Shown one piece after another: positions 17,829-22,659 of a stretch of DNA of 64,000 nt. This DNA comes from an uncultured delta proteobacterium (lineage in GTDB: Bacteria; Desulfobacterota; Binatia; UBA9968): contig CAWDPO010000045.1 of assembly GCA_963804165.1 (NCBI GenBank), forward strand, positions 224,001-288,000. The letters are read 5' to 3'. A program made the translations under genes and the position numbers. Position 1 is the stretch's first letter. Each line of letters opens with the position of its first letter. Below the pieces are notes generated by a model. It saw only the letters and a list, made by a program, of their open reading frames with translations. It ran no database searches and was not told where the DNA came from.

Positions 17829-18582
17829 GTTTCTTACGTCTGAAGCTAAGCGACTCACCGCCTGGCGCCTAGGCATTATTGTTGGCGTCCTCGCGATCGT
17901 CGAAACCTCGGTGCGCGTGGGTTGGATCAGCACTTTCTTTCTCGCCGCACCGACGCGGGCCGCGGTTGTGCTGTTTGAGCAAATCATCCACGGCAACGCG
18001 CTTCTGTTAACCGGAATCACCCTGTTCGAAATCGCCGCCTGTCTGGTCATCGCCACCGTTTTCGGCGTGCTTGCCGGGTTTCTCCTCTGGCGCTACAAGC
18101 TGATCGGCCACAGCTACGAGATGTTTTTGGCGGCGTTATTTTCTTCGCCGGTGATTCTTGCCTATCCGATCTTTCTCGTCACGTTCGGCCGCAGCAGCGC
18201 CGCGGTGATCGCGCTCTCGTCGATTTTTGGCTTGATCCCGATCATCATGAACACCAAGGGCGCGTTTCAAAACGTCAACCCGATTTTGCTCCAGGTCGGC
18301 GCCAGCATGAAGCTGACCCGCAAGCAGATGTTCCGGCATATTCTTATTCCCGCCGTGGCGCCGACGATCTTCAGCGGCTTTCGTCTCGCGTTAACGTACA
18401 TCTTAAAATCCGTCCTCGGGCTGGAATACGTCGCCCAGGTCGGCGGCGTCGGCATGTGGTTGTCCGACGCGGCGTTCAAGTTCGAAGTGGAAGAAGTTTA
18501 TGCCGGCTTGTTCGGCACGATTCTGTTGTCGATTCTGTTTCTTTACCTGATCAACCGGAGCGAAATCTTCGTGCGCAAATAG
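17824..18582 (+). CDS. NitT/TauT-family ABC permease (start uncertain)
   Basis: Hydrophobic helices; EAA-like loop LLQVGASMKLTRKQMFRHILIP; frame is open from 17824 and the first GTG is at 17911. Confidence 0.85.
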   Translation, partial: TEFLTSEAKRLTAWRLGIIVGVLAIVETSVRVGWISTFFLAAPTRAAVVLFEQIIHGNALLLTGITLFEIAACLVIATVFGVLAGFLLWRYKLIGHSYEMFLAALFSSPVILAYPIFLVTFGRSSAAVIALSSIFGLIPIIMNTKGAFQNVNPILLQVGASMKLTRKQMFRHILIPAVAPTIFSGFRLALTYILKSVLGLEYVAQVGGVGMWLSDAAFKFEVEEVYAGLFGTILLSILFLYLINRSEIFVRK

Positions 18583-18584
18583 CC

Positions 18585-19400
18585 ATGGAACGAACCGAGC
18601 GAAAGTCCGCCGCGTTCGCGGCGCATATTCAGACGCCGTTGGGCGTGCAAGCTCTGACTCTTCTTGTGGTCGTCCTGGTGTGGGAATTTATCGGCCGGAC
18701 GGGCGTGTTGTTTCCCGAGCTCTTTCCATCCGTCCTGGAGATCTTGCAATCGCTTTGGACCTACGTCACCACGCCTTTGATGATTCCGCACATCAAAGCG
18801 AGCCTTTACGAAGTCGGCGGCGCCATTGGCATCGCAATTATCTGCGGCGTGCCCCTGGGGATTCTTTGGGGCAGCCGACAGAGCTGGCTGGAGATCGTTG
18901 AGCCGCTCATTCTTTATGCAGCCGTGGTGCCCAAGATCGTCATCTTTCCGATATTTATTTTATTCCTGGGTATCGACGTCCATTCCAAGCTCGCGGTCGG
19001 CGCCATCGCGGCGTTTTTCCCGATCTCGCTGTTGACCATAGCCGGCATGAGAGAAGTGAAAAGAGTATACGTCGACGTCGCCCGCACGGTCGGCGCCACT
19101 CCGTTGCAAATCGCCACCCGCGTCTACCTGCCGGCGATCGCCGGCCAGGTGTTCACCGGCATCAGAATCGGCATGGGCGCGGCGGTGACCGGCGCACTGC
19201 TCGCGGAAACAAAGATCGCCAAGGCCGGCTTGGGTTTCATGATCGTCGAATATTACGGCCAGTTTCGCATCGCCGACATGTATTCGCTGTTGCTGTTCAT
19301 TTTTATATTGGCCGCCCTGACCAATTGGGCGATGAAATTATTATTTTCCCGCCTGTCGCCGCTCGGCCGCGCCAATCAAGACGCCGGCATGTATATTTGA
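18585..19400 (+). CDS. NitT/TauT-family ABC permease
   Basis: VPKIVIFPIF, DVARTVGATPLQIATRVYLP, AGLGFMI. Confidence 0.92.
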   Translation: MERTERKSAAFAAHIQTPLGVQALTLLVVVLVWEFIGRTGVLFPELFPSVLEILQSLWTYVTTPLMIPHIKASLYEVGGAIGIAIICGVPLGILWGSRQSWLEIVEPLILYAAVVPKIVIFPIFILFLGIDVHSKLAVGAIAAFFPISLLTIAGMREVKRVYVDVARTVGATPLQIATRVYLPAIAGQVFTGIRIGMGAAVTGALLAETKIAKAGLGFMIVEYYGQFRIADMYSLLLFIFILAALTNWAMKLLFSRLSPLGRANQDAGMYI

Positions 19401-19415
19401 GGGTACGAAATCTCC

Positions 19416-20186
19416 ATGAAAAAACTTCTGATTTTAATCCGACAAAGACTCGGCGCCGCACAGATAGTGCGGCGCGTATACCGCTATCTGCCTTCCGGCA
19501 AGCGTTGCAAAGAATGCCTCGTGCCGTTTTTGGGAATCTGCTCGCTGCCCTTCCGTCTGCTGCAGATCCGGCCGTCAAGAAAGAATCCCAATCTCTGCAC
19601 GCTGTGATACGAGCTCGCTCCTCCGGGCGGGGAGACGCTTGTCATTTCGGTTTTATTCGTCGACGTCCGCGGTTTTACCTCGCTCGCCGAACAGCTTCAG
19701 CCCGGAGATGTGGCCACTCAGCTGAACCGCTTCTACGATGTCGCCTCGAAGGCGATCTTTTTGCACGACGGCACCTTGGACAAGCTCGTCGGCGATCAGG
19801 TCATGGCGTTTTTCGGCGCGCCGGTGCAGCGCGCGGATCATCCCCGGCGCGCGCTTCAAGCAGCTTGGGAAATTTTAAATAGCGTGATGTCAACGAAAGG
19901 CGATGGTCTGCGCGTGGGCGCCGGCATCAGCACCGGCGAAGCGTTCGTCGGCAATGTCGGCAGCGGAGCGATGACCGATTACACCGTTCTCGGCGACACC
20001 GTCAACGTCGCCGCGCGCCTCCAGGGCGAGGCAGCTCCGGGAGAGATTCTTGTTTCTCAAGAAACCTATAGCCATGTGGCCTCGGATTATCCCAATGCGA
20101 TCCGCCGGGAATTGTTACTTAAGGGCAAGAGCGAACCGGTCGTCGCCTGGCAAATAGATATAAAAACTTCGACGACGCGTCGCTGA
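19416..20186 (+). CDS. Class III adenylate cyclase with N-terminal CxxC...CxxU domain; in-frame TGA at 19605-19607 (putative selenocysteine)
   Basis: ORFs 19416-19607 and 19710-20186 share one frame. Readthrough gives RCKEC...NPNLCTL(U)YELAPPGGE..LFVDVRGFT..DKLVGDQVMAFFG..DYTVLGDTVNVAARLQ, 256 aa. Confidence 0.85.
19618..19634 (+). other. Candidate bacterial SECIS upper stem-loop
   Basis: ctcc-t-cc-[gggc]-gg-ggag, 17 nt, after a 10-nt spacer following the TGA; lower pairing acgagc/gcttgt. Confidence 0.5.
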
Positions 20187-20328: not shown

Positions 20329-20462
20329 AAAACTAATGTCAATAGTGGCTCCTGGGCCCTTTGCTGCGTTGCTATCGCCGGCTCTCGCCGCCGCTCGATT
20401 GACAGCGGCGCACCAACTCCACTAGTGTGAGGTTAATTTTTCATGACGAGGGAGATAATTTT

Positions 20463-21566
20463 ATGGAAACGCCGATCGCCGCCCGGATCATCGACGCCGA
20501 TGCCCATGTCGTCGAGTGCGCCCATACTTGGGATTTCATGGATCCTTCGGAACGGCAGTATCGGCCGATTCCGCTGGAGACCCGTGAAGAAGCGGGAGTC
20601 AAACTTCAGTTCTGGCTGATCGACGGCAAAGTCAGGGGATTTCGCTTTCCCGCGTTTTCCGCCGAAGAGTTAGCCAAGCTGGCGCAAAAAGTTGGCCGCA
20701 AGTTCGCCGACGCGCAGGAAGCCCGCGAGCTCGGCAACGTTGAGCTCCGTTTGCGCCACATGGATGAAACCGGCGTCGACGTCCAGGTGCTGCACAACAC
20801 CGTGTTCATCGAGTCGGCAACCGATCGCGCCGGCGTTGAGGTCGCTTTATACAAAAGCTGGAACCGCTGGTTGGCCGACATTTGGCAACAGAGCGACGGA
20901 CGGTTGCGCTGGTCGTGCATGGCACCGACGCTCAGTATGCCCGATGCTCTCGATCAGATTCGCTGGTCGAACGAGCATGGCGCGTGCGCGGTCATGCTGC
21001 GTCCCATCGAAGGACAGCGGTTGCTCGCCGACCCGTATTTTTATCCGATTTACGACGAAGCGCAGAAGCTCGATCTGCCGATTGCGATTCACATCGCCAA
21101 CGGCAACGCCTGGCTTACCGACTTGTATAGCCACCCGGTGCGCATCGCGTCGACCTTTCACCGCTTTAGAATTCCCACGGTGGGATCATTCAACGATATC
21201 ATTATGAGTGAGATTCACGAGGTGTTTCCGAGGCTGCGTTTCGGTTTTATCGAGGCCAGCGCCCAATGGCTGCCTTGGGTAATGCACGAAGCGCGCAATC
21301 GCTTTAGAACCCTTGGCAGAAAATGGCCTGAGAACGGTGTGCGTGAGTTGGGCATGTACGTCACCTGTGAAAATTCCGACGACATTCCCTACATCGTCCG
21401 CGAAGCCGGTGAAGACTGCCTCGTAATCGGCACCGATTACGGTCACACCGACACTTCAAGCGACGTCGACGCGATCAAAGTGTTCAGAAATCGCAGCGAT
21501 CTTTCGCCCGGCGTCAAGCAAAAGATTTTGAGCGACAACGCGCGTGCGCTTTACGCTCTGTCATAA
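20463..21566 (+). CDS. Amidohydrolase-2 family protein
   Basis: IIDADAHVVE, LPIAIH, GFIEASAQWLP, GTDYGHTD, ILSDNARALY. Confidence 0.9.
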   Translation: METPIAARIIDADAHVVECAHTWDFMDPSERQYRPIPLETREEAGVKLQFWLIDGKVRGFRFPAFSAEELAKLAQKVGRKFADAQEARELGNVELRLRHMDETGVDVQVLHNTVFIESATDRAGVEVALYKSWNRWLADIWQQSDGRLRWSCMAPTLSMPDALDQIRWSNEHGACAVMLRPIEGQRLLADPYFYPIYDEAQKLDLPIAIHIANGNAWLTDLYSHPVRIASTFHRFRIPTVGSFNDIIMSEIHEVFPRLRFGFIEASAQWLPWVMHEARNRFRTLGRKWPENGVRELGMYVTCENSDDIPYIVREAGEDCLVIGTDYGHTDTSSDVDAIKVFRNRSDLSPGVKQKILSDNARALYALS

Positions 21567-21645
21567 GTTCAAGGTTCCGGGTTCAACGTAGAGAATTGGA
21601 ATTCGGCGTTGAACTTTGAAATTTAACGTTGAACTGTCCAATCGC

Positions 21646-22659
21646 ATGCGATTTTACATCAACATCCTGGCGACCTACTTTCCGGATATCGATCCACCCT
21701 ACAACGTCTACTACGAGCAAATTCTTGAACAGGTGGCGCTTGCTGAAGAGCTGGGCTGGGAATGCTTCATGTTCAACGAGCACCATTTTCTCGGCTACGG
21801 CGGGCCGATAGCTAACCCTGCGGTGCTGCTTGCCGCGGCCGCGGCGCGGACGTCGAAAATTCATCTCGGCCCGTGTATCGCAATCCTGCCGCTACGCCAT
21901 CCGCTTCATAGCGCCGAGGACTACGCCATGGTCGACGCCATCTCCGGTGGACGGTTAGAGTTTGGCATTGGCTCGGGCAACACTGAGATGGACTACAAGG
22001 TGTTCGGCGTCACGAGGGAAGATGACCGCCACCGTCTTCGGGAGGCGATCGATGTCATCCTCAAGACTTGGGGCAACGCGCGGGTCGGCCACAAAGGCGA
22101 GTTCTGGCAATTCGATGAACTGTCACTCTACCCGCGGCCCGTGCAGCAGCCCCATCCGCCGATCTGGGTGGCCGGCACGTCTGCCGAAGGTCTAGGATGG
22201 GCGGGACGCCAAGGCTATCACATCATGACCGTCGGCCATCCGCACCCGCCTGAAAAAGTTCGACCGGGGGTCGAAGCTTGGCGGCAAGGTTTGATCCAAG
22301 CGGGCTACAAGCCCGAAGAAAAACATTGTCAATTTCACGCCCGCACCTACGTCAACACCAACGCCGAGCGCGCTCGTGAGACCGCGTGCGCCGCCATCAC
22401 TCGATATGACGAGATCTCACGGATCGGACGGCGATCCCTTACGGCGCCACCGGCGGAATATAACTGGGACATGATGCTCGCCACCGGCCGCAACAATTAC
22501 GGCACTCCTGACCAGTGCATCAAGAACATTCGTAACGCCATGAACAATTACTACTTCGACACGCTGACGACGACGTTTAATTTCGGCGGCATCCCCCATG
22601 CCGAGATTCTGCAATCCATGCGTCTTTTCGCCAAAGAAGTCATGCCGGCGTTCCGCTAG
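21646..22659 (+). CDS. LLM-class (luciferase-like) flavin-dependent oxidoreductase
   Basis: NEHHF, AARTSKIHLG, DAISGGRLEFGIG, PRPVQQPHPPIWVAG, RLFAKEVMP. Confidence 0.92.
   Translation: MRFYINILATYFPDIDPPYNVYYEQILEQVALAEELGWECFMFNEHHFLGYGGPIANPAVLLAAAAARTSKIHLGPCIAILPLRHPLHSAEDYAMVDAISGGRLEFGIGSGNTEMDYKVFGVTREDDRHRLREAIDVILKTWGNARVGHKGEFWQFDELSLYPRPVQQPHPPIWVAGTSAEGLGWAGRQGYHIMTVGHPHPPEKVRPGVEAWRQGLIQAGYKPEEKHCQFHARTYVNTNAERARETACAAITRYDEISRIGRRSLTAPPAEYNWDMMLATGRNNYGTPDQCIKNIRNAMNNYYFDTLTTTFNFGGIPHAEILQSMRLFAKEVMPAFR

Follow-up and report, generated by a model that had tools for sequence, protein, structure and literature searches.

The question raised by this locus is whether a TGA codon lying inside an apparent adenylate cyclase gene marks a stop, an error or a codon for selenocysteine (Sec). 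The gene is located in a stretch of 64,000 nucleotides, hereafter the window (positions 224,001 to 288,000 of contig CAWDPO010000045.1, GenBank assembly GCA_963804165.1), which originates from a soil bacterium, an uncultured delta proteobacterium (GTDB lineage Desulfobacterota; Binatia; UBA9968). Coordinates given below refer to the window unless another contig or locus is named, and all features of the gene lie on the + strand.

A single reading frame with one internal TGA

Positions 19416-20186 form one frame of 256 codons, running from ATG 19416 to the terminator TGA at 20184-20186, in which the sole internal stop is the TGA at 19605-19607 (codon 64). Read as a complete gene with Sec at codon 64, TGA would be used both as Sec codon (19605-19607) and as terminator (20184-20186). 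A Shine-Dalgarno-like motif, GAGGG (19400-19404), was read from sequence alone 11 nt before the ATG. The peptide around the internal codon is RKNPNLCTL[TGA]YELAPPGGETLVISVLFVDVRGFT, with YELAPPGGE as the residues immediately following the TGA; the motif CKEC occupies codons 31-34 (19506-19517), C61 is encoded at 19596-19598 and CTL-TGA constitutes codons 61-64. No in-frame ATG, GTG or TTG is present between the TGA and GTG 19710, and the first metal-binding aspartate, D83 (19662-19664, in FVDVRGFT), is encoded within this interval, hence the stretch carrying D83 can be obtained only via readthrough.

These results bear on three claims of the initial annotation of the window. Its descriptions of a 63-residue ORF and a cyclase ORF as a single frame split only by the TGA at codon 64, and of a first catalytic Asp placed between that TGA and GTG 19710 such that an active enzyme needs readthrough, both held, there being no intervening start. 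Its further proposal, that the TGA within NPNLCTL completes a CxxU motif pairing with the upstream CKEC, held with respect to the positions, whilst a four-ligand metal site remains an inference. As the gene itself terminates with TGA, this codon is not generally a sense codon in the organism, and TGA is also the stop of neighbouring genes in the window.

Conservation of the TGA and selection on both flanks

The readthrough protein was utilized as a query against 123 genomes of the same order, from which 26 orthologous loci were retrieved. Intact orthologues numbered 24 (65-74% identity, seven genera), and all 24 carried TGA at the identical column, in the context NP[NSH]LCTL[TGA]YE[LF]APPGGE. 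The codon was also present in the partial orthologue L127, and the syntenic orthologue L126 (genome G082) had three single-base indels, yet retained both the TGA and the hairpin described below intact. The window gene and the 24 intact orthologues are hereafter referred to as group A, in which TGA is thus found in 25/25 genes. Two of the 24 orthologues (L103 and L115) were from genomes flagged as unpublished, and the statistics were the same when these were left out. No orthologue was found at E<=1e-55 among the genomes searched in a sample of 400 others of the phylum.

The dN/dS ratio (Nei-Gojobori; saturated pairs excluded, 186-283 of 300 pairs kept) was 0.13 before the TGA (codons 1-63), with 0.08 over codons 24-63 alone, and 0.16 after it (codons 65-245). 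Purifying selection therefore acts on both sides of the TGA, which indicates that both halves are translated in this frame. In none of the 24 intact orthologues were the two parts out of frame with each other, and codon 67 was CTC or CTT, neither a start codon, in 12 of the 25 group A genes.

Support for the codon from sequence data of other origin was limited. None of the sequencing runs contained more than 0.20 of the sampled words. Two DNA contigs from other studies, X1 (19590-19840) and X3 (19580-19802), showed the TGA unchanged, though each has fewer than 31 nt on the 5' side and this constitutes a weak check. A metatranscriptome contig, X11 (19409-19599, eight differences), ends just short of the TGA and hence proves neither transcription nor readthrough. 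The initial annotation had called for the TGA to be sought in independent related genomes, where it was found in all 24 intact orthologues, and to be confirmed in raw reads, for which only the short contigs X1 and X3, without change at the TGA, are available. It also carried the caveat that the contig contains other apparent errors, and the assembly does have indels elsewhere (selB, see below); the TGA itself is shared by the 24 orthologues.

Two ABC-transporter permease-like ORFs lie upstream of the gene (17911-19400), and an amidohydrolase-like ORF and a luciferase-like oxidoreductase ORF downstream (20427-22659), these names having been read from the translations. The order of the gene neighbourhood was kept only inside the genus (7/26 loci), and hence gives no clue to function.

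Cysteine and TGA at the column in distant homologues and paralogues

Searches of species-representative genomes yielded 80 further loci, of which 49 align at the column and the other 31 match the catalytic domain only. Cys (TGC or TGT) was encoded at the column in 47/49, mostly in Actinomycetota (including Mycolicibacterium and Mycobacterium), with some in Chloroflexota and one in Binataceae. The remaining two encode TGA and are both from Chloroflexota, namely 'Ca. Lucifugimonas marina' JH545, represented by a complete genome (L044:1624), and a Chloroflexi MAG (L061:1609). Codons of the APPGG region vary freely in the Cys homologues.

The best 120 clusters of a large protein database were also inspected. 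Eleven were full-length proteins of 242-267 aa (52-60% identity) in which the column is Cys; these and the 47 distant loci bear out the expectation, stated at the outset, that Cys would occupy this column in distant taxa. Amongst the other 109 clusters, 28 begin exactly at x-APPGGE, three codons past the column, and 81 begin further on, one of the latter (P0020) being a Cys form that begins within the N-terminal domain; approximately 108 of the 120 therefore begin past the UGA. No cluster of more than 60% identity spanning the column was found among these 120. Truncated entries beginning past the column are the usual sign of gene callers having stopped at a Sec codon, and NCBI and JGI call the close relatives simply 'adenylate/guanylate cyclase', the products so named being truncated. 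In five metagenomic orthologues (P0078, P0083, P0085, P0094 and P0100) one of the surface loops in the catalytic domain, past residue ~160 in window protein numbering, contains an insert of 10-40 residues composed of FD[PS]AQDR-like repeats.

A second paralogue clade, group B, was identified in 12 loci of the same bacterial family (L128, L131-L140 and L142, one of which is from an unpublished genome). Its members are approximately 40% identical and approximately 245 aa long, and have TGA at the same column in the context NPNLCNR[TGA]E.HWE.GRL. The first knuckle of group B is C-x-x-D, with Asp as the second ligand in 12/12 loci. The query used returned no group B member from the window's genome. 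That genome does harbour a Cys-form paralogue, L143 (C7:43831-44496; CNIC...CTRC), whose 382-aa frame is extended at the C-terminus by a long hydrophobic segment.

A maximum-likelihood tree of 63 rows, from which unpublished loci were left out, required four Cys/Sec changes, at least three of which were forced by branches with SH-aLRT >= 95. Exchange between Cys and Sec has thus occurred at least three to four times at position 64, and never at the other three ligands.

A conserved hairpin downstream of the UGA

Following a spacer of 10 nt (19608-19617), the 17-nt sequence CUCCUCCGGGCGGGGAG (19618-19634) forms a SECIS-like hairpin, CUCCUC(C)-(C)GGGC-GGGGAG, which coincides with codons 68-73 (APPGGE) and displays synonymous-site conservation. 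A hairpin was present at +10 nt in 25/25 group A genes, with only two variable positions, the loop base (C/T) and the base that had been proposed to be a bulged U. The spacer and hairpin held as described in the initial annotation; the bulged U as a SECIS feature did not, since this base is C in 13/25 group A genes and is paired by RNAfold, as either U.G or C-G. The conserved structure is more simply described as a stem of 6 bp capped by a CGGGY loop of 5 nt.

The case for this hairpin was made by conservation. The codon alignment of the 25 genes contains 89 conserved columns of degenerate amino acids, of which only four use a single codon throughout; these are GCT68, CCG70, GGG72 and GAG73, which are the arms of the hairpin. 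Four such columns fell within six codons in 1 of 20000 shuffles, and in 0 of 5000 when the unpublished genomes were excluded. Elsewhere in group A genes GCT and GGG are minor codons, accounting for 13% of Ala codons and 9% of Gly codons, respectively. The hairpin is therefore beyond chance by conservation, though not by energy. The folding energy of 70 nt around the site was -19.9 kcal/mol (z = 0.27), with 116/200 shuffles folding equally well or better, and some kind of hairpin was found at this place in many Cys homologues too, since the region is GC-rich and Pro-Pro-Gly-Gly codons are self-complementary. Folding energy was consequently rejected as evidence, as it is no better than that of shuffles and fails to separate Sec from Cys forms. 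An Rfam scan of 19400-19900 returned two chance-level matches only, with no family fitting the hairpin.

Hairpins also follow the UGA in the other TGA-containing lineages. In group B the structure GGGAGRCG-GGN-CGYCUCUC lies 10 nt past the UGA and is paired in 88/88 cells, including one compensatory A-U to G-C pair, though formal covariation is weak, with the observed score reached by 23/500 shuffles. The Chloroflexota locus L061 has GCCCCUG-GGU-CAGGGGC at +11, whilst in L044 a 10-bp stem was found, the best fold of which is without a G-rich loop.

The SECIS of Escherichia coli fdhF, a well-known element, and that of fdhA from the window's own genome share with the cyclase hairpin a GC-rich 6-bp stem positioned 10-12 nt past the UGA, inside the coding sequence, and a loop of 4-5 nt containing GG. 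The cyclase hairpin differs from these bacterial SECIS elements in that its loop is CGGGY rather than GGUC(U), and in that it lacks a conserved bulged U.

Selenocysteine machinery

The window's genome consists of 46 contigs and is 81% complete. It encodes selA (610 bits), selB (357 bits) and selD (385 bits), clustered on contig 16, and also contains a 95-nt tRNA-Sec with anticodon TCA, such that every component named in the initial annotation (selA, selB, selC and selD) was accounted for, with selB frameshifted as assembled. Two other genes of this genome contain one in-frame TGA each, namely selD itself (C16:139949-140875, L010) and fdhA (C35:23018-26293, L145/L146). The latter has the hairpin GUCCCC-GGUCU-GGGGAC 12 nt past its UGA, which resembles the cyclase hairpin in build.

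As assembled, selB (contig 16, L001:700-2610, minus strand) is divided into three frames of 423, 177 and 92 aa, and has three single-base insertions relative to two congeners in which selB is one frame. Four relatives and Lucifugimonas encode selB as a single frame of 635-694 aa. These insertions are likely to be assembly errors, given the indels in L126 and the earlier remark on errors in the contig, though no read check supports this and gene decay is the alternative. Were the insertions real, this strain could not insert Sec.

Within the order, selA was detected in 110/123 genomes, including all 24 with an intact orthologue, and it is also encoded by both Chloroflexota genomes with TGA (514 bits for L044 and 490 bits for L061). 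At E<=1e-50, selA was not found in G104, the source of one group B Sec gene, or in G082, the source of L126; each of these two genomes is 92% complete.

A class III catalytic domain

Residues 77-241 (19644-20138) constitute a class III nucleotidyl cyclase catalytic domain, as evidenced by a match to PF00211 (E 2e-22, 80.1 bits against a cut-off of 21.9) and by matches to PDB entries in both sequence and fold. All 51 aligned homologues matched PF00211. The catalytic residues are D83 (19662-19664), K123 (19782-19784), D127 (19794-19796), T190 (19983-19985), N197 (20004-20006) and R201 (20016-20018), which align with their equivalents in Cya2 and CyaB. The first five are invariant in the 51 homologues and R201 is at least 90% conserved; the description of the class III residues (D, K, D, T, N-x3-R) as intact thus held in the window gene. 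An NCBIfam scan gave only weak partial cyclase matches, and no selenoprotein model at E<=0.1.

The closest matches to the catalytic domain, by sequence and by fold, were Cya2 and two soluble class IIIb adenylate cyclases, CyaC of Spirulina platensis (PDB 1WC1; Foldseek E 1.5e-20, TM-target 0.87, 36% identity) and CyaB of P. aeruginosa (3R5G). The residue set shared with these cyclases comprises two metal-binding Asp residues, Lys and Thr for adenine, and Asn and Arg for the transition state, and a Lys/Thr pair is characteristic of subclass IIIb adenylate cyclases. The domain is accordingly class IIIb-like, and none of its catalytic residues has been lost; synthesis of cAMP and dimer formation are inferred, in the absence of an assay. 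Class III cyclases, including those of class IIIb, work as homodimers.

Whereas CyaC and CyaB carry sensor domains, the window cyclase has in their place an unannotated N-terminal CxxC...CxxU domain. Residues 1-70 matched no solved cyclase, and within the scope of the searches none of these enzymes is a selenoprotein. The Cys-form relatives from Actinomycetota (including Mycolicibacterium chlorophenolicum, L025, and Mycobacterium asiaticum, L028), Chloroflexota and metagenomes (P0002-P0011) share the length and two-domain architecture of the window protein and keep the four ligand positions and the catalytic residues, with TGC or TGT where the window clade has TGA.

An N-terminal domain with two knuckles

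The N-terminal domain (residues 1-76; 19416-19643; dN/dS 0.13) consists of two helices followed by two Cys knuckles, and was modelled by AlphaFold2 with a pLDDT of 75-95. The first knuckle, C31-K-E-C34 (19506-19517), has both Cys residues invariant in 51 sequences, whilst in the second, C61-T-L-U64 (19596-19607), codon 64 is TGA in 25/25 group A genes and Cys in 47/49 distant loci. Across the 51 homologues C31, C34, C61 and C/U64 are as invariant as the catalytic residues.

Residues 1-76 matched nothing in Pfam at E<=0.1, and no significant match covering residues 1-70 was found in Pfam, NCBIfam or the PDB; a faint match to the treble clef family zf_Tbcl_2 was seen in 3/51 members (E 0.04), which is not significant. 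Foldseek searches against the PDB matched the catalytic domain and nothing else. The full AlphaFold2 model, based on a 51-row alignment (pLDDT 93.5, pTM 0.89), has the N-terminal domain packed on the catalytic domain, with helices at residues 2-14, 16-22 and 41-48, short bridges at residues 30, 37, 53 and 61, and the catalytic strand at 71-84; Sec64 is located seven residues before this first catalytic beta-strand. It is inferred from the motif and the secondary structure that the four ligands converge on one zinc-ribbon or treble-clef-like site, in the absence of metal-binding data.

Interpretation and alternative explanations

Comparative evidence establishes that the UGA is a conserved codon under selection, that it is associated with a SECIS, that it falls where homologues have Cys, and that the genomes concerned are Sec-competent. 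That it is a genuine Sec codon at which Sec is incorporated is very probable, this being a judgement from comparative evidence without 75Se labelling or a peptide; the Sec reading of the initial annotation was supported by each computational check that was run. The explanation that we consider best, with strong confidence as a whole, is a Sec gene recoded with the aid of the hairpin, encoding a soluble class IIIb-type cyclase with Sec64 as fourth ligand, of which metal binding and switching are inferred. In this model, the hairpin (19618-19634) would direct SelB and tRNA-Sec to recode the UGA at 19605-19607 to Sec, to give a 256-residue soluble class IIIb-type adenylate cyclase in which Sec64 would serve as the fourth ligand of the invariant knuckle pair C31-x2-C34 ... 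C61-x2-U64. The resulting Cys3Sec site may bind a metal, most simply Zn, and C61/U64 could act as a highly reactive and reversible switch, forming a selenenylsulfide or losing the metal upon oxidation, or binding a thiophilic metal. Such a switch would be predicted to shift the adjacent strand with D83, or the dimer, and thereby raise or lower cAMP synthesis. Without selenium or the Sec machinery, no full-length enzyme would be produced.

That a Sec-liganded metal or redox switch gates cAMP synthesis was proposed in the initial annotation, and it is still an inference. The site is read as chemically active, and not merely structural, because Cys/Sec exchange has occurred only at this ligand, at least three times, and because the neighbouring ligand is Asp in group B; nonetheless, we hold a role in sensing redox state or soft metals to be a tentative proposal that falls a little short of probable. 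The main competing possibility is that Sec is encoded but is a purely structural metal ligand, which stabilizes the N-terminal domain while regulation resides elsewhere. Favouring this are the four-ligand pattern, invariant in 51 homologues of which most have Cys, and the confident folding of the N-terminal domain onto the catalytic domain by AlphaFold2. Against it stand the at least three to four exchanges at one ligand, with none at the other three, and the Asp of group B (12/12), which implies that there is no rigid Cys4 scaffold. Moreover, Sec usually substitutes for chemically reactive rather than structural Cys. A structural role remains possible.

Explanations without Sec fared worse than the Sec reading. 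Decoding of the UGA as Trp or Cys, through near-cognate readthrough or a local change of code, is not ruled out by any protein data, and selB is frameshifted in the assembly; however, the code is standard, as the same gene and its neighbours stop at TGA, Cys occupies the column in homologues, the conserved hairpin is at SECIS distance, and the Sec machinery is complete here with full-length selB in relatives, hence we regard such decoding as very unlikely. Equally improbable is that translation ends at the UGA, the products being a Cys-rich peptide of 63 residues and a short cyclase with its own start. This agrees with the public annotation, in which gene callers have placed cyclases of 158-219 aa starting past the column, but without a start before GTG 19710 the second product would lose strand 1 and D83, codon 67 is not a start in 12/25 orthologues, the Cys homologues are single fused frames, and each of the 24 intact orthologues has the halves in one frame. 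The possibility that the TGA is an artefact of sequencing or assembly, or that this genome carries only a pseudogene, draws on the indels present elsewhere in the assembly (selB) and on the other contig errors seen by the earlier reader. It is all but excluded by the occurrence of the same TGA in 24 independent species-level genomes and many metagenomic clusters, by purifying selection on both halves, and by X1 and X3 being unchanged at the TGA, albeit with fewer than 31 nt on the 5' side of each.

Relation to known selenoproteins and wider significance

A 2026 inventory of prokaryotic selenoproteins (PMC13188914) lists 119 families and subfamilies, none with a cyclase domain and none another signalling enzyme, and the word 'cyclase' occurs 0 times in its text. 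No paper on a Sec-containing cyclase was found in full-text searches of the literature, though an entry hidden in supplementary lists cannot be excluded; the earlier statement that no selenoprotein nucleotide cyclase has been characterized agrees with both. The cyclases described here very probably represent a new, previously unlisted selenoprotein family, one in which Sec is part of a signalling enzyme's regulatory domain, Sec incorporation being inferred.

Sec likewise replaces a Cys ligand in a short metal-binding motif in the FmdB-family putative regulatory protein UxxU, the dual-CXXC small protein, the metal-binding MbdU and SaoC, for all of which a metal-ligand role has been proposed (PMC13188914). 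Unlike the window cyclase, these are small stand-alone or transport proteins and none is fused to a signalling enzyme; an NCBIfam scan of the window protein found no match to their models at E<=0.1. In zinc-thiolate redox switches, such as Hsp33 and the anti-sigma factor RsrA, oxidation of Zn-bound Cys leads to metal release and altered conformation and activity. The logic proposed for the cyclase site is the same, without any sequence relationship, except that the cyclase would rely on Sec as its reactive ligand and would have cAMP as its output.

A bolder reading, towards which we remain more doubtful than persuaded, is that this is the first selenoprotein in second-messenger signalling, with a class III cyclase gated directly by its Cys3Sec centre, which would sense redox state or soft metals reversibly and with ultrasensitivity. 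If so, selenium chemistry and supply would be coupled to cAMP levels, and the at least three independent Cys/Sec conversions would mark the ligand as the reactive sensing residue of a widespread, uncharacterized cyclase regulatory domain. Known prokaryotic selenoproteins are mostly oxidoreductases, metal-handling or transport proteins, and Sec within an adenylate cyclase's regulatory domain would carry selenium biology into signal transduction. As public annotations cut these genes short, the family is mis-annotated wherever it is present in soil metagenomes. The Sec forms of group A, group B and Chloroflexota and the Cys forms of Actinomycetota together provide a natural Cys/Sec series at one site, which could help to work out what the unannotated N-terminal domain senses. 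'Ca. Lucifugimonas marina' is a cultured organism, hence Sec incorporation is testable there.
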